In this document: positions 1,847 to 46,993 of the stretch, in pieces
Numbering within the stretch: position 1 is the first letter of the stretch
How the letters are laid out: every line of letters begins with the position of its first letter
Made by a program: the position numbers and the translations under genes
Notes under the pieces: model-generated
Seen by the model: the letters and a program-made list of their open reading frames with translations, nothing else
Database searches by the model: none
Told to the model about the DNA's origin: nothing
NCBI GenBank assembly: GCA_035479795.1
Contig: DATIII010000004.1
Location: 15,668 to 79,667, forward strand
Direction of reading: 5' to 3'
DNA length: 64,000 nt
DNA from: Candidatus Saccharimonadales bacterium
Lineage (GTDB): Bacteria > Patescibacteriota > Saccharimonadia > UBA4664 > SCTI01

Positions 1847-2040
1847 CGCCTGGCCTCCAGCAAGCCGCACTCTTCGAGTAGCGCCCTGCCTCTGGCTCGC
1901 CAGATGTCGTACACCGGGCTTTGGAACCCGGGCTCCCACAACCTGGGGATACTCATGGCAACTGGAGACCATCTGACATGGTTGTTGTAGAGCCATCCGG
2001 AGACGCTCTCCACGAGCTCGTCTTCTTCTTCGGTAGTCAT
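1843..2040 (-). CDS. Small soluble protein (65 aa), hypothetical
   Basis: MTTEEEDELVESVSGWLYNNHVRW...; overlaps both neighbours by ATGA. Confidence 0.4.
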   Translation of the reverse strand: MTTEEEDELVESVSGWLYNNHVRWSPVAMSIPRLWEPGFQSPVYDIWRARGRALLEECGLLEARR

Positions 2041-2315
2041 CGCCGGCCTCGGTTCTTCTCCTGCTTGCGCTCATCGAGGATCGGCTGGACCTGCAGCCAG
2101 CGGACCCAGACGATGGGCGCGGAGATGATCAGCCCGACGGCAACCAGTGCAAAGCCCTCAGCGATGTGCCCTGATGCAACAATCATTCCGCAAGGGAAGA
2201 TGATGCCCAGAGGCATGATCAGCGCCCAAAGCTTGAGACGCCAGCTCGCGAGAAGACGCAATCCATTCGGCGATCGGAACTGAGATCGGCCCAGTTCTTG
2301 TAGGAACTTCCTCAC
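2037..2315 (-). CDS. Small two-TM membrane protein (92 aa), hypothetical
   Basis: Hydrophobic segments LWALIMPLGIIFPCGMIVASG and FALVAVGLIISAPIVWV; first gene of the three-gene overlapping set. Confidence 0.45.
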   Translation of the reverse strand: MRKFLQELGRSQFRSPNGLRLLASWRLKLWALIMPLGIIFPCGMIVASGHIAEGFALVAVGLIISAPIVWVRWLQVQPILDERKQEKNRGRR

Positions 2316-2383
2316 TTTGCTACCTCCAGATTGGGTAGGGTGTGGTCGGCCTAATTTATAACTGTATAAGCGAATAATTGCAA

Positions 2384-2460
2384 TGGCGGGCCCGACCGGA
2401 TTCGAACCGGCGATCTCCTCCGTGACAGGGAGGCATGTTAGGCCTCTACACCACGGGCCC
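2384..2460 (-). tRNA. tRNA-Asp (anticodon GTC)
   Basis: Reverse complement folds as GGGCCCG/CGGGCCC acceptor, anticodon arm CCTCC-CTGTCAC-GGAGG, T-loop GGTTCGAATCC, discriminator G and encoded CCA. Confidence 0.9.
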
Positions 2461-2571
2461 GCGTCAAAAGAACTGACTCATACTAGCAGATTCCATCTGT
2501 TGACGCAATCAAGGGGAAGTCGTTTTGCGCAGGTTGAATACCGCTAATGGTTAGCCTATAATGGCCTACAT

Positions 2572-2943
2572 ATGGATCCGATCCGGAAGCGTGGAAATAC
2601 TCTAGATCTCAGCCAGGCCAAGCCTAAGGCACCGGCTGGTCCGGCCATGCCTAAACGCCCTTATACTCCTGAGGTAAAGGCTCAAGCTCCACGGGTGGCA
2701 CCAGTCCCAACTCATTCACTCGAGGTGGCAGAAGCCATTGATGCGGCTCGAGCCGAAAAGGCCCAAGCCCAAGCCCAAGCCCCAGCCCCAGCCCCAACCG
2801 CACCGGCACCTGCGCCAGCCGCCTCGCCCAACCGCAGCCGTTTTTGGCCGGCCTTCATGAAGTTTTTGGGCCTGCTAATTATTTTTGGGCTGATTGTCGC
2901 CGGCGGCCTCTACATCTACATCCATTTTTACACTCAGCAGTAA
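2572..2943 (+). CDS. Pro/Ala-rich low-complexity protein with C-terminal membrane anchor
   Basis: 123 aa; AQAQAQAPAPAPTAPAPAPAASP repeat region and C-terminal TM FLGLLIIFGLIVAGGLYIYIHF. Confidence 0.5.
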   Translation: MDPIRKRGNTLDLSQAKPKAPAGPAMPKRPYTPEVKAQAPRVAPVPTHSLEVAEAIDAARAEKAQAQAQAPAPAPTAPAPAPAASPNRSRFWPAFMKFLGLLIIFGLIVAGGLYIYIHFYTQQ

Positions 2944-2944
2944 T

Positions 2945-3349
2945 ATGCAGATTCAAACCTCCAAGCAATCCGTCCTCGACATCTTTGTCCTGGTGCTGTT
3001 TATTTGTCTCCTTGCCGGAGGAGTTACTTATCTGGAGGTAGTCAGGCCCAGTATCAAAGACCTCGATGGCCTCATGAACCGCTTGACCGCCATGCAAACC
3101 CCGGCTCCGGCAGCCCCACCCGTGCAGACCAAACCAAAGGCCGCGCCAGCGTCCGCATCAGTAATTAAAACTGCCAGTACAAATCAAACTGTTCATTTTC
3201 GGACGGCAAAAGACACCAGTAGCCAGATTATTCAAGACTTGGCACCGGGTACAACCGTGCAGCTACGCGATGATAGCGACGCCAAATGGCAGGGGGTAAG
3301 CTACCAGGGCAAGCAAGGCTACATCTTTAAAGAATATCTTTCATATTAG
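2945..3349 (+). CDS. Membrane-anchored protein with C-terminal bacterial SH3-like domain
   Basis: Starts 2 nt after the upstream stop. N-terminal TM VLDIFVLVLFICLLAGGV. C-terminus TVHFRTAKDTSSQIIQDLAPGTTVQLRDDSDAKWQGVSYQGKQGYIFKEYL resembles SH3b domains. Confidence 0.55.
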   Translation: MQIQTSKQSVLDIFVLVLFICLLAGGVTYLEVVRPSIKDLDGLMNRLTAMQTPAPAAPPVQTKPKAAPASASVIKTASTNQTVHFRTAKDTSSQIIQDLAPGTTVQLRDDSDAKWQGVSYQGKQGYIFKEYLSY

Positions 3350-29821: not shown

Positions 29822-29898
29822 CGGGGTGTGGCGCAGTTGGCTAGCGCGTACGGCTGGGGGCCGTGAGGTCGCAGGTTCAAGTCCTGTCACCCCGACCA
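29822..29898 (+). tRNA. tRNA-Pro (anticodon GGG)
   Basis: CGGGGTG/CACCCCG acceptor, anticodon loop CTGGGGG, T-loop GGTTCAAGTCC, discriminator A, CCA. Confidence 0.9.
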
Positions 29899-30023
29899 GG
29901 TATTATTACAACTGACTTGAACCTGGCATTGTCGAGCGAAGCCCTGACAAAGAGGGTCATTTGAGTAGGCGCGCGCAGAAGCTACCTCCTAGTTTCGAGC
30001 ACGGCGACGAAATTGGCCTGCCA

Positions 30024-30058
30024 AAGTCCTGTCACCCCGACCAAGAATTATTACCAAT
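30024..30058 (+). repeat. Direct repeat of the tRNA-Pro(GGG) 3' end (att-like scar)
   Basis: AAGTCCTGTCACCCCGACCA is identical to 29879-29898. The next ~13 nt are also similar (GGTATTATTACAA vs AGAATTATTACCA). Abuts the stop of the dcd-like gene. Confidence 0.7.
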
Positions 30059-30581
30059 CTCCGGACTGAAAGTTTTTGTGCGAAAGCGATGCCATTGGGC
30101 CGCGGGCGTTCTGGTATTTTCCGGTATACAACTGAGGCTGGCCGATCGGTACCCAGAAGGTCATCTGCCCAATCGACATCCCCGGATAAATCTTAACCGG
30201 CTGGACTGCATGCATCTGGAGTGTCCATTGCCCAAAGGCGCCTTGATCAATTAAATCAGCTGTAATATTGATGAATAAACCGAGCCGGCCGATAGAGGAG
30301 CGGCCTTTCATGATTGGCACGTAGTTATTGCTGCCAATACGCTCCTCTATATGCCCGAGGTAGAGTCGGTTCGGCTCTAAGACCATGCCCTCCGGAGATA
30401 TTTTGATAGTCCGGGTTGCATTTGAGCGCTTAGCGTCCAGAACCGCTGGCTCGTACACCTTGATGGTTTGACCGATATGAAAGTTGTATGAGTTTGGGTT
30501 AATGTGCCGTGGGTCAAAGGGGGAAATTTGAATCCTTCCCGATTTAACCTCACTGGCTATTTCGGGCCCGGTTAGTATCAC
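30051..30581 (-). CDS. dCTP deaminase/dUTPase-superfamily protein, paralog 2 (catalytic Glu replaced by Gln)
   Basis: GRSSIGRLGL and ADLIDQGAFGQWTLQMHAV. Aligns to Dcd, but the position of the deamination Glu (E138 in E. coli Dcd) is Q. Confidence 0.65.
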   Translation of the reverse strand: MILTGPEIASEVKSGRIQISPFDPRHINPNSYNFHIGQTIKVYEPAVLDAKRSNATRTIKISPEGMVLEPNRLYLGHIEERIGSNNYVPIMKGRSSIGRLGLFINITADLIDQGAFGQWTLQMHAVQPVKIYPGMSIGQMTFWVPIGQPQLYTGKYQNARGPMASLSHKNFQSGDW

Positions 30582-31093
30582 AGCTCGAATCTTATCCGAC
30601 TAGGCTCGGCAGATGTATCACGGGCGTATTTACCTTGGTAGCTCGACCCGTGGCCCTGGACCTTCCAGAAAGTAATCTGGCCAATCTGCATACCCGCATA
30701 AATTCTCAGGGGTTGGACCACTTTTAGCTCGAGAGTCCAGTGATGGTTGGCGCCCATGTGGCCTAGATCGGCCGTGATCTGCAGCCATAATCCCAGCCGA
30801 CCCATTGTTGACCGGCCAATCAAGCTTGTAACGAAGTGGAGGCTGCCGATTCGCTCAAGCGTATGAGCTAAGTAGATTCGCCCGGGCTTTAGTACAAAGC
30901 CGTGTTGTGAAATTGTATGCCGGCTCGTCTTAAAAGGCTGCTTAGGGTCGATCAGCCCAGGTCCGAATTCAATAATTTCATTTCCTAATCGGTAGTTGTA
31001 GCTATTTGGGTTAATTTGGTCTGAGCTAAACGGCTCGATCCATATATTCCCACGGCGACGTTGCTGAATAATTTCAGGTCCGGATAGAATCAT
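30578..31093 (-). CDS. dcd: dCTP deaminase (Dcd family), paralog 1
   Basis: GRSTMGRLGL and ...WTLELKVVQP retain the catalytic Glu, but the I-D-x-G motif reads GHMG. ATGA overlap with paralog 2. Confidence 0.65.
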   Translation of the reverse strand: MILSGPEIIQQRRRGNIWIEPFSSDQINPNSYNYRLGNEIIEFGPGLIDPKQPFKTSRHTISQHGFVLKPGRIYLAHTLERIGSLHFVTSLIGRSTMGRLGLWLQITADLGHMGANHHWTLELKVVQPLRIYAGMQIGQITFWKVQGHGSSYQGKYARDTSAEPSRIRFEL

Positions 31094-31592
31094 GGCTTAG
31101 CTCGGCTTTAATCGCGGCAACTAATTGCTCCAGCTCGTCCCAGTTTTGGCCGCGGTAGGTCGCTATTCTGCTAGAGCTCGGCAGTTTGGCGATAAACTCA
31201 TCAAAGTAGCCAATCATTTTTTCTAACTGCGCTACATTCACAACCTGATGTACGCCGGGTCGATCGTGAAGTCTACTTTTTGCCAGTTCCAAGTTGGGTG
31301 CGGCGTAGATGATGATCATTTGTTCACAAATAATTGAATTAAGAATGGTCTGCTGGAGTGGGGTAAAGGGCTGAGTCCGGCCAAATATCTGGCTATATAC
31401 TACTTCGCTGATATGACCCCTCTCAATAACGGTCTGGCTGCATTGGGCGTACTCGCTAAGATACCGGTCGAACTGATCACCGCCTCGATGACCCAGCGCC
31501 TTGTGGTCCCAACCGAGGCGATTTTTAAGCTCTTTGGCAAGCGTTGACTTGCCGCCACCGTCAATACCCTCGATGAGAATATTCTTTATCAT
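31074..31592 (-). CDS. Deoxynucleoside/nucleoside-monophosphate kinase-like P-loop protein
   Basis: ILIEGIDGGGKSTLAKEL Walker A of the dNK/dTMP-kinase type; ERGHISEVVYSQIF resembles the dNK ERS motif. Overlaps dcd paralog 1 by 20 nt. Confidence 0.6.
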   Translation of the reverse strand: MIKNILIEGIDGGGKSTLAKELKNRLGWDHKALGHRGGDQFDRYLSEYAQCSQTVIERGHISEVVYSQIFGRTQPFTPLQQTILNSIICEQMIIIYAAPNLELAKSRLHDRPGVHQVVNVAQLEKMIGYFDEFIAKLPSSSRIATYRGQNWDELEQLVAAIKAELSHDSIRT

Positions 31593-31692
31593 CTTTCCCT
31601 TGAATGATGATAGTTCTTAAGCATAGTCATAACTAGTCGAAACAGTTTGACTCAAATGCTAATTGCAGTATCTTAGAAGTCTAGGAGTTTTT

Positions 31693-32355
31693 ATGCATCG
31701 TTTGCAGCAACACATTCTGCAGAGGCTGATTCTTAACCCCGAGCAGCGTTATGCCGACCTCAAGCCGGTGGAAGTGGAGGGGAATCTCTTCATGTACCAT
31801 CTGCGCTGTTTGATGAAGGATGGCTATGTTGAGAAGCGGGCGAATGGCCGTTACAGCTTAAGTGCCGCTGGTAAGCTCTATGTCGACCGTCTTAGTCTTA
31901 AATCTCTGACTCCCCGCATTCAGCCGCGGATTGTGACATTAATGGCGGTGGAGCAGGGCGGCAAGTGGTTGGTTTATCTGCGTAAACGCCAGCCACTCAT
32001 CAATCTAATCGGCTTTCCCTATGGCAAGATCCATTTAGGAGAGAGCATTAAGGCCGCGGCTGAGCGCGAGCTTAAAGAAAAGACCGGGTTAATCGCTGAC
32101 CTCACTCACGTTGGTGATGGATATGCTACAACATCCGAGGCCGGTGAGCCGGTTAGCCAAATAATGTTTCATATGTTTTATGGTAAGGATCCAAAGGGCG
32201 AGATTCTGGAGCACTCAGACATCGGCGAGCCCATGTGGGTCGATGAGTTGGCTATTGGTGGGCAGGGCTTTATGCCCAATGTCGCCGACCTACTGGCCTT
32301 GGTAAAAAATCGATCAGCCGAACGCTTCTTCGCGCAACTCGAACATCGAATTTAG
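31693..32355 (+). CDS. Winged-helix plus NUDIX hydrolase domain protein
   Basis: AGGAG Shine-Dalgarno 6 nt upstream. Nudix box GKIHLGESIKAAAERELKEKTGL. Divergent from the kinase-dcd operon. Confidence 0.65.
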   Translation: MHRLQQHILQRLILNPEQRYADLKPVEVEGNLFMYHLRCLMKDGYVEKRANGRYSLSAAGKLYVDRLSLKSLTPRIQPRIVTLMAVEQGGKWLVYLRKRQPLINLIGFPYGKIHLGESIKAAAERELKEKTGLIADLTHVGDGYATTSEAGEPVSQIMFHMFYGKDPKGEILEHSDIGEPMWVDELAIGGQGFMPNVADLLALVKNRSAERFFAQLEHRI

Positions 32356-32846: not shown

Positions 32847-33008
32847 TTTAGGCGCATATTTCGGCGTCTAAAGTGCGTTTTTATCATCACCGTACGCTTT
32901 GTACGCTTCTTCGAAAAACTTGCTTATCCTAGAAATCTGCTGCCCAAATTAACCCAGTACATCTGTTAAACCCTTGAAAAAGTGGCAATTTTCAGGTATA
33001 TTTACCGG

Positions 33009-33384
33009 GCTAAGGCTGCTGGATGGCTGCTCGCCAGAGGCGAGAGGAAAGTCCGGACAGCACAGAGTAAGGACGGTTGCTAACGGCAACCGGGACCAGG
33101 GAATGTGTTTCTCTCGAGAAAACATAGGCCCAAAGCCTAGGGAAAGTGCCACAGAAACGATACCGCTCACCATTTTGTGAGTAAGGGTGAAACGAGCAGG
33201 GTAAGAGCCTGCAGCCCCTCCGGGTGACCGGCGGGGGAGGTAAACCCCGTCTGCTGCAAGGCTGCTGGCAATCAGAGAGTACTCGCTCCTGCCAGCGTTC
33301 GCGCCGCACGACCCCGACGGTGACGTCGGGGCTAGATAGATGGCCATCCAATCCGCCAGCTGGCGGAGGGACAGAATCCGGCTT
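33009..33384 (+). ncRNA. rnpB: RNase P RNA (bacterial type A)
   Basis: P1 helix GCTAAGGCTGC (33009-19) pairs with GCAGCCTTAGC (33370-80). Conserved GAGGAAAGTCCGG, ACAGAAACGATACCGC and GGGTGAAACGAGCAGGGTAAGAGC blocks. Overlapping track ORFs are spurious. Confidence 0.85.
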
Positions 33385-33477
33385 ATAGGCAGCCTTAGCT
33401 TAGAATAATTATCCTTCCCGAGGGGAGGGTTTTTATTTTTCAACCTGATAAAATAGTTATGTAAAAAGTGTGAGTTT

Positions 33478-46391: not shown

Positions 46392-46879
46392 AATACCTCC
46401 AATTAATGCTTTGATTTTCACAACAAAGCCGGCAGCAACCTACCACCAAGATCGAAAAAATCTGTCATTGGCGGGCATGATTTTTTGTTAGTTCGGCGCA
46501 CCCTTATGCTTTATTTCTTATCTGTAAAATGGTATTCTTTCCAAGCTGCATCGAGTATACTTTCATGCAGTTTGGACTAGGGGCTGACAAGCTTCGACGA
46601 TTGGACTTTTACAACTCGCGCCAGCAAGCCGCAGCCATGCGTTAATTGCACCAATCAACAAATCAGAACTTTGTTGCTCGGGTAAAGAGTCTGTTTCAGG
46701 CTCCCACGCTCGTACCTGCTTACGCTTAAGTAAGCCATCGGTACCTGACTCCAGATGGGGGTTCACCGGTGTCATTTATCTGGATGCTGCCGGCGGGACG
46801 CCAGACCCGCGGGTTTAAGACAGTTGGCTGCTCTAGTCGTTATTTTGTTTGTTTCAAGACGACTAGCTAAGCTTTAAAA

Positions 46880-46993
46880 CGAACTAAGCTTGTAGAAGGA
46901 CGAGAGGTAACCATTCGGACCGGGGTGCAATTCCCCGCAGCTCCACCAAAAGGGCGCCAGTAGCAACTGGTGCTTTTTTGTTATGATGAAGCC
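46880..46993 (+). promoter_or_regulatory. Structured 5' leader with terminator-like hairpin directly upstream of the hydrolase gene (candidate riboswitch or attenuator)
   Basis: CGGGGtgcaattCCCCG hairpin, then GCGCCAGTagcaaACTGGTGCTTTTTT ending 25 nt before ATG 46994. Confidence 0.3.

Follow-up and report, generated by a model that had tools for sequence, protein, structure and literature searches.

Why does a Saccharimonadales genome carry, next to a tRNA gene, a nucleotide kinase together with two different members of the Dcd family, and what would such a set of genes do to the nucleotides of its host? An earlier note on this DNA, made from the sequence alone, had suggested a manipulation of dNTP pools, possibly directed against phages. 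Our own answer is a tentative one, which we regard as plausible but still short of probable. Namely, the accessory operon may encode an obligate hetero-oligomer of two Dcd-type subunits, here called E-type and Q-type, with the trimeric Dcd/dUTPase fold, which together with the kinase would run a dC-to-dU shunt, probably under the control of the neighboring wHTH-Nudix protein. In the window, by which we mean the whole stretch of 64,000 nucleotides that was analyzed, open reading frame calls bear out the three overlapping minus-strand genes that the note had described, and the divergent wHTH-Nudix gene, tRNA-Pro(GGG) and a 31-nt copy of the tRNA 3' end are likewise present (Table 1). The operon runs from the kinase through the E-type to the Q-type gene, with overlaps of 20 nt between kinase and E-type and 4 nt between E-type and Q-type.

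Table 1. Coordinates of the features at the locus, as positions in the window.
Feature	Position	Strand	Remarks
tRNA-Pro(GGG), CCA encoded	29822-29898	+	ARAGORN; Rfam RF00005, 60.3 bits
Direct repeat, copy 1	29879-29909		last 20 nt of tRNA-Pro plus 11 nt of flank
Direct repeat, copy 2	30024-30054		94% identical to copy 1; last 4 nt overlap the Q-type stop codon
Q-type Dcd-family gene	30051-30581	-	176 aa; PF22769 DCD, E = 4.9e-40
E-type Dcd-family gene	30578-31093	-	171 aa; PF22769 DCD, E = 1.8e-36
Kinase gene, dNK/Tmk fold (modeled)	31074-31592	-	172 aa; first gene of the operon
Palindrome AGTCGAAACAGTTTGACT	31635-31652		candidate operator of the wHTH-Nudix protein
Promoter-like site of the Nudix gene	31647-31674	+	-35 TTGACT, 16-nt spacer, -10 TATCTT
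wHTH-Nudix gene, alternative TTG start	31663-32355	+	230 aa
wHTH-Nudix gene	31693-32355	+	220 aa; NUDIX, E = 2.3e-9

Profile searches agree with the assignment of both Dcd reading frames to family PF22769 (137.6 and 126 bits against a cutoff of 27), and the best PDB matches of the two proteins are 2qxx, 4xjc and 1ogh. Against the dCTP deaminase equivalog model TIGR02274, with a cutoff of 92.8 bits, the Q-type protein scores 96.3 bits, barely above the cutoff though it lacks the catalytic Glu, and the E-type protein 86.4 bits, below it. We read the residue states from an alignment to the M. tuberculosis Dcd:dut (2qxx), and then across the family. In the window, the E-type protein retains motif II and the catalytic Glu (E122), its motif III Ile-Asp has become Gly-His (G111-H112) and its lid is degenerate, while the Q-type protein retains motif II (GRSSIGR), the motif III Asp (D112) and the C-terminal lid GKYQ..GP, and has Gln (Q122) in place of the catalytic Glu. 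At the position of M. tuberculosis D119, E-type proteins have His, Asn or Gln but never Asp (the motif III Asp position is His in 102 of 120 E-type homologs and Asp in none), and Q-type proteins have Asp in 79 of 79. At the position of M. tuberculosis E129 (E. coli E138), Glu is found in 81 of 81 E-type proteins, and Gln or Met, never Glu, in all 79 Q-type proteins. The lid GKYQ..GP..S is kept in the Q-type only, and H117 and W119 are invariant in the E-type. In other words, the motif III Asp and the catalytic Glu, which a bifunctional enzyme combines, never occur together in either chain; even monofunctional Dcd retains the motif III Asp. What the two subunits have in common is the motif II Ser/Arg, the small pyrimidine-pocket residue (M. 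tuberculosis A115) and Gln148, as well as a change of the N-terminal QPSS(I/V)D to NPNSYN. Since the E-type loses the Asp and gains the invariant His and Trp, and since both subunits carry NPNSYN, the substrate may not be plain dCTP. From these residues we predict that the E-type is the deaminase subunit and the Q-type a pyrophosphatase-like or nucleotide-binding subunit. In the Dcd/dUTPase superfamily, the active sites lie in the inter-subunit clefts of the trimer, and the Asp-to-Asn change in motif III abolishes hydrolysis while binding is kept (PMC4827122); the D83N variant of M. tuberculosis Dut has 0.0002 of the wild-type efficiency (PMC5519681).

Are the two genes partners, or do they merely happen to be neighbors? 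The earlier note had taken them for an unfused, duplicated variant of a kinase-Dcd fusion, a description that has to be replaced: E and Q are an ancient obligate pair, and the 48% identity of the window paralogs reflects an old duplication, not a local one. Among 80 E-anchored genomic loci from many phyla there are 78 intact E-Q pairs, 1 frameshifted pair and 1 pair cut by a contig end, the two genes being adjacent on one strand in 79 of the 80. In metagenomes, an E-type gene adjoins the Q-type gene in 29 of 29 cases in which the flank was long enough to tell, and canonical Asp+Glu Dcd genes from the same scan are singletons in 46 of 46. The spacing is tight as well, with a 4-nt overlap in 45 of 78 pairs and a distance within 30 nt in 74 of 78. 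Moreover, E and Q co-evolve (Mantel r = 0.79, as against a permutation maximum of 0.10). A natural E-Q fusion exists as a single metagenomic ORF, for which a frameshift artefact is possible, and in two covalent three-domain relatives (P0248 and P0249) motif II and motif III/Glu are retained in separate domains, the same split logic that a two-gene pair (L133) displays. The fusion and the three-domain relatives lend support to a heteromer. The Q-type domain is also found fused to a TylM1/DesVI-like N-methyltransferase and to a PEP-synthase-type dikinase. The family occurs in at least 367 species genomes and at least about 500 metagenome stretches, 631 cluster representatives match its profile at E <= 1e-30, and its hosts include CPR bacteria, chlamydiae, gut Firmicutes and actinomycetes. 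In Streptomyces and Rhizobium the pair is plasmid-borne. Its distribution is patchy and horizontally mobile.

In the mechanism that we propose, E and Q would be partner subunits of one enzyme, dividing between them the catalytic equipment of a bifunctional single chain. Sites built on the E-type would have the deaminating Glu, no hydrolytic Asp and a poor triphosphate lid, and sites built on the Q-type would have the Asp and the lid but no Glu. The kinase would phosphorylate a salvaged deoxypyrimidine nucleoside or monophosphate, general kinases would take the product to the triphosphate, dCTP would be converted to dUTP at the E-type sites, and dUTP would then be hydrolyzed to dUMP and pyrophosphate at the Q-type sites. 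In sum, this would amount to a regulated dC-to-dU(-to-dT) shunt from which no dUTP escapes, and a regulated passage from dC nucleotides to dUMP is what we consider the most likely function of the module. In fold and family the proteins resemble Dcd of the E. coli type and the bifunctional Dcd:dUTPases of M. jannaschii and M. tuberculosis (Rv0321, 2qxx); with canonical Dcd both window subunits share the motif II pattern GRSS.GR, the pocket Ala and Gln148, and, like the bifunctional enzymes, they would by our proposal take dCTP to dUMP overall. However, in the known Dcd enzymes, which are homo-oligomers, every chain has both Asp and Glu, whereas here these residues are split and the genes strictly paired. 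In the literature searched we found no heteromeric Dcd. The engineered asymmetric dUTPase trimers of Szabo et al. (2016, PMC4827122) likewise have three non-equivalent inter-subunit sites, but they are laboratory constructs of one dUTPase, whereas the E/Q proteins are natural and ancient and would combine deaminase-type with hydrolase-type sites. The natural three-domain proteins P0248 and P0249 represent covalent versions of the same concept.

According to its AF2 model (pLDDT 89.8), the kinase has the dNK/Tmk fold. Its sequence contains the P-loop EGIDGGGKST, an ERGHISE motif and the lid arginines R107 and R111; dNK/Tmk matches in Pfam and NCBIfam are below threshold and confined to the P-loop, and the PHROG profile 'thymidylate kinase' matches residues 3-164 at 2.4e-14. 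In a Foldseek search with the model, the best match is YorR of the B. subtilis SPbeta prophage (3kb2/2axp, TM 0.80), a protein of the dNK/thymidylate-kinase class, followed by deoxyadenosine kinase, Tmk and dCK, with TM values of 0.6-0.66 to Tmk and dAK. The window kinase shares with YorR the compact fold, the P-loop, an ERS-like motif and the lid arginines, but differs in having less than 20% sequence identity and sub-threshold profile matches. Kinases of this type are rare (7 clusters in 5.8 billion proteins), and in every informative contig the E-Q pair lies 3' of them, so that the claim of a co-inherited unit of one kinase and two Dcd genes is upheld. In other lineages, a non-homologous P-loop protein is encoded 5' of the pair in 35 of 80 loci, and some of these proteins pass the Pfam threshold for T4-type dNMP kinase.

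As for control of the operon, the AF2 model of the Nudix protein (pLDDT 91.4) has a winged helix at its N terminus (residues 3-64) that leads into a Nudix fold; in the collection that was searched, the identical entry has 220 aa, corresponding to a start at the ATG at 31693. The best Foldseek matches of the model are to MTH1, at 26-29% identity. Compared with the complete signature Gx5Ex7REUxEExGU, the Nudix box G..E..RELKEKTGL (RELxEK) has Lys (K130) in place of the second Glu of the EE pair, and this Lys is invariant across 24 members of the protein's own family. The pocket is MTH1-like but probably non-hydrolytic, and we predict a nucleotide-sensing transcription regulator, which would respond to a (deoxy)nucleotide through this pocket and bind the palindrome at the center of the divergent promoter region. 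The distance from this palindrome is 42 nt to the start codon of the kinase gene and 40 nt to the ATG of the Nudix gene. Related AGTC-N10-GACT sites occur in the Nudix-proximal intergenic regions at the loci L082, L089, L023 and L086/L087, and a 24-nt stretch is 96% conserved relative to L082, while the proteins are 46-65% identical. The -35 element of the promoter-like site overlaps the right half of the palindrome, this site being a consensus match only (4 sites found in the scanned region versus 3.2 expected). An imperfect Nudix domain joined to a winged-helix DNA-binding domain recalls the NrtR-type regulators; however, the domain order is reversed here (wHTH N-terminal), the Nudix domain is closest instead to MTH1/MutT dNTP binders, and no PF21906 (NrtR_WHD) match was found in the window protein. 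True NrtR-type genes (NUDIX plus NrtR_WHD), unrelated to the window Nudix gene, are linked to the pair in 18 other loci, and the window protein matches this neighbor cluster weakly through its Nudix domain (E = 5.8e-5). Does the Nudix gene then belong to the module, as the earlier note had it? Only in part. A divergent Nudix gene is present in 4 of 5 contexts of the window-type kinase, and the protein probably regulates the operon, perhaps as a repressor. That said, the gene also occurs without the module in four relatives (L089, L090, L091 and the P0147 contig), and the Nudix-RNase HI pair is conserved backbone, not cargo; therefore, its adjacency to the operon could be partly incidental.

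The module itself is accessory. The view that the block beside tRNA-Pro is variable cargo is borne out by the same four relatives, all of which share the backbone: the three-gene module is absent from each, and different genes fill the slot between tRNA-Pro and the Nudix gene. The same tRNA-Pro is found at the same backbone position in the relatives L090, L091 and L082, and it forms the left edge of this variable slot. The second repeat copy was left behind by recombination at the tRNA 3' end, the 20-nt core of the repeat having 0 chance matches in 100 shuffles, and L090 has a partial tRNA copy of its own (64 nt, 89%) that brackets different cargo. The region downstream of tRNA-Pro is, in other words, a hotspot, and the module is variable cargo in it. 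The module shares with tRNA islands a content that varies at the same site in related genomes, but it is not bracketed as such islands are: just 114 bp lie between the two repeat copies, the module is situated outside them, past the second one, and a third copy is absent. No integrase was found among the genes neighboring the module, and for GC and GC3 every z-score has an absolute value below 1. The genes flanking it, namely the tRNA, RNase HI, RNase P RNA and cell-wall genes, are core backbone.

Would our reading be different if the contexts of the pair in other genomes were taken as the guide? In other genomes, the pair is accompanied by genes for radical SAM enzymes, methyltransferases, phosphoesterases, dioxygenases and glycosyltransferases. 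In particular, the immediate neighbors of 80 pairs are enriched in radical SAM enzymes (11), histidine phosphatases (10), methyltransferases (10) and GT1 (6). In some Streptomyces plasmid operons, the pair has a TauD dioxygenase or phosphodiesterase gene on one side and PIG-L, WbqC, GT4 and aminoacyl-tRNA-ligase-like genes on the other, an Erm-type methyltransferase being encoded nearby; in others, it is next to a MurA-like enolpyruvyl transferase. Such operons resemble nucleoside natural-product clusters. Methyltransferase, AlaX-like and GT4 genes adjoin the pair in other CPR genomes. Such neighbors point to specialized chemistry more than to a simple shunt: E/Q may act on a cytosine nucleotide that is non-canonical (ribo-, modified or sugar-linked) and, together with its kinase, supply a deaminated intermediate to a pathway for modified nucleotides, nucleoside metabolites or cell-surface glycans, with no balancing of dNTPs. 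The fusions of the Q-type domain and the divergence of both subunits from canonical Dcd in nucleotide-contacting motifs point the same way. However, the window module has a kinase only and none of these tailoring enzymes, the small pocket residue, the motif II Ser/Arg and the triphosphate lid of the Q-type fit a substrate of the dCTP/dUTP type, and the Nudix domain of the regulator resembles MTH1-type dNTP binders, which is why we consider this explanation unlikely. We are equally doubtful of a broader proposal, namely that E/Q is an unrecognized natural class of hetero-oligomeric Dcd-fold enzymes that make or destroy a non-canonical pyrimidine nucleotide within a widespread mobile system of nucleotide modification or pool manipulation, of which the Saccharimonadales operon would be a minimal form. 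If this were true, the partners of the system would include dedicated kinases or dikinases, Nudix-type sensors, radical SAM enzymes, methyltransferases and phosphoesterases, and a role in conflict, possible in some hosts, would mean anti-phage defence or the production of antimetabolites.

A heteromer might also contain a catalytically silent Q-type subunit, serving in regulation, in nucleotide binding (e.g., sensing of dTTP) or as a scaffold, so that the complex would only deaminate and dUTP would be released. The Glu is indeed always missing from the Q-type, related covalent trimers carry fully degenerate domains with a structural role only, and Dcd-family enzymes are cooperatively regulated by dTTP (PMC4827122). 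That said, the Q-type keeps every known need of dUTP hydrolysis (the invariant Asp, motif II, Gln148 and the lid), which a scaffold would not require, and release of dUTP would be hazardous without a dUTPase. We find such a silent subunit quite unlikely.

The anti-phage reading, in which the kinase and the Dcd pair drain dCTP upon infection with the Nudix protein as sensor or partner, is in our judgment very unlikely. The defensive dCTP deaminase, which the earlier note had described as a kinase-Dcd fusion, is a single 576-aa kinase-deaminase fusion found in defence islands, and its cytosine deaminase domain is zinc-dependent, with C370 and C401 (Tal et al., bioRxiv 10.1101/2021.04.26.441389). 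Like the window module, it combines a P-loop kinase with a deaminase of deoxycytidine nucleotides and has an accessory distribution, and the patchy, mobile occurrence of the pair and the location of the module in a tRNA hotspot, from which close relatives lack it, would suit defence. However, the deaminase of that enzyme has the cytidine-deaminase fold, unrelated to the Dcd/dUTPase fold, and fusion of kinase and deaminase in one chain of more than 350 aa is a mark of that system, whereas the window genes are separate and encode 172, 171 and 176 aa. Neither window Dcd matches the PADLOC models, and defence-island context, which we looked for in the window and around 80 homologous loci, is absent: there is one candidate-family hit among 30 window neighbors and there are sporadic hits only among 144 neighbors of homologs. 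Radical SAM partners in other lineages do give weak viperin-like matches, but their scores are far below the family cutoff (24.9 versus 180 bits). What is more, the operon appears to be under an ordinary repressor of the small-molecule type, and the pair occurs in biosynthetic-looking operons. We have rejected kinship with the known anti-phage dCTP deaminases on account of the different fold, the lack of a PADLOC match and the core-backbone flanks.

Finally, it is just as improbable that the pair forms two independent homotrimers (E a dCTP deaminase, Q an archaeal-style dUTPase) co-transcribed with a dNMP/dN kinase as a core route to dUMP, the plain salvage that the earlier note had named as its alternative: both Dcds weakly match the archaeal Dcd-like dUTPase model NF002598, the module has native composition among core genes, and many hosts are reduced-genome symbionts dependent on salvage, but close relatives with the same backbone lack the module, the pair is patchy, plasmid-borne and often found in specialized-metabolism operons, single-gene Dcd is the norm elsewhere, and independent enzymes would need neither strict adjacency in about 110 loci nor such co-evolution, an E-Q fusion and covalent-trimer relatives.

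Dcd and dUTPase enzymes are homotrimers. If the heteromer that we favor is real, E and Q would be a case of subfunctionalization inside one oligomer, with the deaminase Glu on one paralog and the hydrolase Asp and lid on the other, and the natural covalent-trimer and fusion relatives show how the sites are composed. The analogy with the anti-phage dCTP deaminases is corrected, the folds being different. Moreover, since annotation pipelines call both genes "dCTP deaminase", the pathways reconstructed for CPR bacteria, chlamydiae, gut Firmicutes and actinomycete gene clusters probably contain errors or gaps at the dCTP-deaminase step. Almost no transcription regulation has, to our knowledge, been characterized in Saccharibacteria, and the wHTH-Nudix protein with its AGTC-N10-GACT palindrome represents a testable candidate regulator-operator pair in this group.

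The three minus-strand ORFs of the window are joined by overlaps of 4 nt and 20 nt and encode a kinase followed by two Dcd-family proteins with 48% mutual identity (database proteins identical to those of the window are VLF21_02020 and VLF21_02025). Residues 3-164 of the kinase match the PHROG 'thymidylate kinase' family, and the closest structural neighbour of its AlphaFold model (pLDDT 89.8) is YorR of B. subtilis SPbeta (TM 0.80), with deoxyadenosine kinases, thymidylate kinases and dCK ranking next. The divergent gene has an identical database protein, a 220-aa Nudix form, and in its model (pLDDT 91.4) a winged helix at the N-terminus is joined to a Nudix domain that most resembles MTH1; the Nudix box RELxEK is found family-wide, one catalytic Glu being missing. 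On the other side of the block lies tRNA-Pro(GGG), whose 3' end and flank are copied as 31 nt, 145 bp downstream, where the copy borders the stop codon of the second Dcd gene. An earlier note had described this arrangement, namely the three overlapping genes, the divergent winged-helix Nudix gene and the adjoining tRNA with its copied end, and the description stands in all these respects. Its interpretation, a candidate dNTP-manipulation system that is possibly anti-phage, is partly supported.

Coordinates of features in the window and in homologous loci
Feature	Location	Strand	Match or remark
tRNA-Pro(GGG)	window 29822-29898		
Perfect 12-nt inverted repeat	window 29872-29883 / 29914-29925		tRNA-Pro T-arm versus just downstream of tRNA
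Dcd-family ORF, Q-type	window 30051-30581	-	PF22769, E = 4.9e-40
Dcd-family ORF, E-type	window 30578-31093	-	PF22769, E = 1.8e-36
Kinase ORF	window 31074-31592	-	dNK / thymidylate kinase models, P-loop only
Palindrome AGTC-N10-GACT	window 31635-31652		overlaps -35 of sole promoter-like site there
Nudix start codon (ATG)	window 31693		
ORF, 164 aa	window 32949-33443	-	overlaps RNase P RNA; almost certainly spurious
ORF, 113 aa	window 33010-33351	-	overlaps RNase P RNA; almost certainly spurious
RNase P RNA, class A bacterial	window 33011-33401	+	241.5 bits
tmRNA gene	window 46580-46948	+	Rfam 92.5 bits; not reported by ARAGORN
Nudix homolog, divergent from kinase-E-Q	L086 94-685	-	split into two ORFs
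Partial tRNA-Pro(GGG) copy	L090 5889-5951		64 nt, 89% identical
Streptomyces sp. NBC_00239 plasmid operon	L092 (NZ_CP108096) 150018-157926		contains E-Q pair
Single E-Q ORF, ~356 aa	L096 (Ga0233447_1001147) 1932-3002		short linker between domains
Unusual two-gene pair	L133 2458-3528		
Third Dcd-like ORF	L012 6952-7590		directly after E-Q pair
Third Dcd-like ORF	L058 6807-7460		directly after E-Q pair
Third Dcd-like ORF	L066 7061-7630		directly after E-Q pair

When aligned with the reference used for residue comparison, M. tuberculosis Dcd:dut (motif STAGFIDPGFSGHITLEL), the two Dcd copies differ in complementary fashion. Namely, the upstream copy, here called E-type (motif ITADLGHMGANHHWTLEL), keeps the catalytic Glu and carries His in place of the motif III Asp; the downstream copy, Q-type (motif ITADLIDQGAFGQWTLQM), keeps the Asp and carries Gln in place of the Glu. 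This complementary difference is not local decay: the pattern GH...H.WTLE recurs in 102 of the 120 best homologs of the E-type. Across the E-Q pairs of the best 80 loci, the Asp (D119 in M. tuberculosis) is present in 79/79 Q-type proteins and never in E-type ones (His 50, Asn 19, Gln 12), and the Glu (E129) is present in 81/81 E-type proteins and never in Q-type ones (Gln 67, Met 11). Both types alike retain the motif II Ser/Arg. The pyrimidine-pocket residue (A115) is Ala in the E-type and Ala or Ser in the Q-type, and the C-terminal lid, GKYQ..GP..S, is degenerate in the former and conserved in the latter.

The two genes are an obligate pair. A scan with one genome per species gave at least 367 relatives, and the best 80 loci, in which ORF calling was crude, come from Saccharibacteria and other CPR, Chlamydiae, Holosporaceae, Clostridia, Bacilli, Paenibacillus, Muribaculaceae, Streptomyces and other actinomycetes, Verrucomicrobia and Armatimonadota. 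The E-type gene has an intact Q-type gene behind it on the same strand in 78/80 of them; of the other two loci, one has a frameshifted Q-type gene and one is interrupted by a contig end. The genes overlap by 4 nt in 45/78 pairs and lie within 30 nt of each other in 74/78, and the E-E and Q-Q distance matrices are correlated at r = 0.79 (permutation maximum 0.10). A Q-type profile scan of metagenome contigs, limited to 80 loci, gave 29 Q-type genes with sufficient flanking sequence, and each of these has an E-type gene next to it, upstream or downstream; the 46 canonical Dcd genes from the same scan, with both Asp and Glu, are all singletons.

Published work places the active sites of the Dcd/dUTPase superfamily in the inter-subunit clefts of a trimer (PMC4827122), and a motif III Asp to Asn change abolishes dUTP hydrolysis, leaving binding unaffected (PMC4827122; PMC5519681). 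Covalently linked members of the family fit this architecture. One metagenomic ORF (L096) carries E-type and Q-type domains in a single chain and is taken as a natural fusion, with the proviso that a lone ORF of this kind is possibly a frameshift or assembly artefact. Moreover, P0248 (549 aa) and P0249 (532 aa), which top an exhaustive profile search (7703 matches), hold three Dcd-like domains per chain: the first, which has lost motif II, is alone in keeping the motif III Asp, the Glu and the lid, the second is degenerate throughout, and the third, having lost Asp and Glu, is the only one to keep motif II. They are, in effect, covalent pseudo-heterotrimers. The same motif split occurs between two genes in L133, in that Asp and Glu are intact in the first, where motif II has degenerated (GRFSLASLG), and motif II is intact in the second, where the catalytic residues are replaced by Ser and Gln. 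The two-domain proteins P0263, P0328 and P0337 resemble P0248/P0249, and in three loci a third, more divergent Dcd-like ORF follows the E-Q pair, matching the Q-type at E = 4e-6 to 2e-15. Among the structure matches examined there was no solved structure of an E-type, Q-type or multi-domain member, and in the literature searched there was no relevant paper on paralogous or heterotrimeric Dcd or on such a pair, nucleoside-antibiotic-cluster Dcd included, nor anything relevant on E145Q/E138A-type variants. The best-supported explanation, which we put forward tentatively, is that of an accessory, regulated operon for a kinase of the dNK/Tmk fold and a Dcd-family heteromer that would convert deoxycytidine nucleotides to dUMP; E subunits would supply deaminase-type sites and Q subunits pyrophosphatase-type sites.

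A role in specialised metabolism, acting on a non-canonical substrate, is unlikely, if the foremost of the rivals. As to the partners of the pair, in every informative contig (L082, L083, L086/L087, L023 and the window), the window-type kinase precedes the overlapping E-Q pair; it is rare, with 7 clusters among 5.8 billion proteins, and a metagenome scan by the single window kinase sequence, with overly specific patterns, gave zero matches. In other lineages, another P-loop protein (cluster c1) stands ahead of the pair in 35/80 best loci, and some of its members score above the Pfam cutoff for T4-type dNMP kinases. The two kinds of P-loop protein are analogous and not homologous, the match between them in a profile search being limited to the P-loop (E ~0.02). 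Further recurrent neighbours are NrtR-type Nudix-wHTH regulators (18 loci), a MoaA/viperin-type radical SAM enzyme far below family cutoffs (13), an uncharacterised 236-aa protein (11), histidine phosphatases (11), methyltransferases (10) and GT4 glycosyltransferases. The radical SAM enzyme is not viperin, its score being 24.9 bits where the cutoff is 180, and MoaA scores higher. A gut operon conserved in L003, L008, L021, L030, L040, L042, L043, L055 and others (Bacilli, Clostridia and Muribaculaceae MAGs) comprises an NrtR-type Nudix-wHTH gene, a P-loop protein, a 398-aa radical SAM protein, weakly viperin/MoaA-like, the E-Q pair and a histidine phosphatase, the 236-aa protein replacing the radical SAM in Clostridia; this operon may make a modified nucleotide. 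On Streptomyces plasmids, E-Q operons look like nucleoside natural-product clusters. In particular, the L092 operon, with its Erm-type rRNA methyltransferase, phosphodiesterase, TauD dioxygenase, PIG-L deacetylase, WbqC, GT4 and aminoacyl-tRNA-ligase-related protein, has the look of an antibiotic cluster, nucleoside or glycoside and as yet uncharacterised, that includes a self-resistance gene. In L093, the genes immediately upstream of the pair are those of a MurA-like enolpyruvyl transferase and a metallophosphoesterase, and a methyltransferase, a Nudix protein and a metallophosphoesterase accompany it on a Rhizobium plasmid. Finally, Q-type domains are fused to a PEP-synthase-type ATP-grasp dikinase (PDB 5hv6, 1e-16) or to a TylM1/DesVI-like N-methyltransferase (6.5e-9) in P0268, P0271, P0277, P0280, P0287 and P0351 (~820 aa) and P0292 (389 aa); their sequences suggest an actinomycete origin for the dikinase-fused proteins.

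A purely regulatory Q subunit, with its lost Glu on one side and its invariant Asp and conserved lid on the other, we consider less likely still. Depletion of dCTP against phages, the idea of the earlier note, is improbable. Namely, the defensive dCTP deaminase that has been characterised joins a kinase and a zinc-dependent cytosine deaminase domain in one 576-aa protein (bioRxiv 10.1101/2021.04.26.441389), whereas the window Dcds have a different fold; the likeness is therefore confined to the name and the broad theme. PADLOC had no match for either window Dcd and, over the four window proteins, the partner clusters, 144 homolog neighbours and 30 window neighbours, nothing beyond generic or candidate models (one window neighbour matches candidate family PDC-M05A, 3.7e-30); neither the homolog neighbourhoods nor the window flanks are defence islands. 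Among the 30 ORFs scanned at 14455-48013, one neighbour matches Phage_Mu_Gam (1.3e-15) and two are paralogous PucR-HTH/GGDEF_2 proteins. A phage module was likewise rejected, the pair being essentially absent from phages: viral contigs and GenBank phages gave one weak match (39% identity) and otherwise only canonical Dcd genes standing alone, at <=35% identity. Two independent housekeeping homotrimers are just as improbable for genes so strictly paired.

To return to the accessory operon and its genomic setting, relatives share a conserved backbone of MBL, L28, M50, tRNA-Pro(GGG), a variable slot, wHTH-Nudix, RNase HI, RNase P RNA and a sugar transferase. In the window and L082 the slot is occupied by the kinase-E-Q module, in L090 by a small ORF (117 aa) bracketed by that genome's own partial tRNA copy, and in L091 and the P0147 contig by small uncharacterised ORFs. 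The L090 copy sits ~400 bp beyond the intact tRNA and 50 bp before the Nudix gene, and it is a second integration-type scar, of independent origin, in this hotspot. The Nudix of L089 is the closest relative (88% identity); the ORF upstream of that Nudix, of 125 aa, is unrelated, and the module is missing from the contig, which is too short to show the remaining backbone. The 20-nt core of the window repeat has a chance expectation of zero in 100 shuffles. The direct repeats are not att sites around the module, because they enclose only 114 bp, with the module outside. Integrases were not found around the window module, and a recent foreign origin was rejected, as base composition shows no deviation. 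The direct and inverted repeats, together with the inverted tRNA of L082, suggest that the locus has been repeatedly rearranged. Since slot genes differ among relatives, the module is variable cargo of a recombination hotspot downstream of tRNA-Pro, and Nudix-RNase HI is backbone.

Consequently, the Nudix gene is not integral cargo in Saccharimonadales. Its functional link with the operon is nevertheless retained, because the divergent arrangement recurs in L023 and L086/L087 with different outer flanks and because the palindrome, a candidate operator, lies in the Nudix-proximal intergenic region of all contexts, including the module-less L089. In L086 and its twin L087, the split Nudix homolog is a frameshift or pseudogene. 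The wHTH-Nudix protein would then be a nucleotide-sensing, autoregulated repressor, which would also control the divergent operon where it is present.
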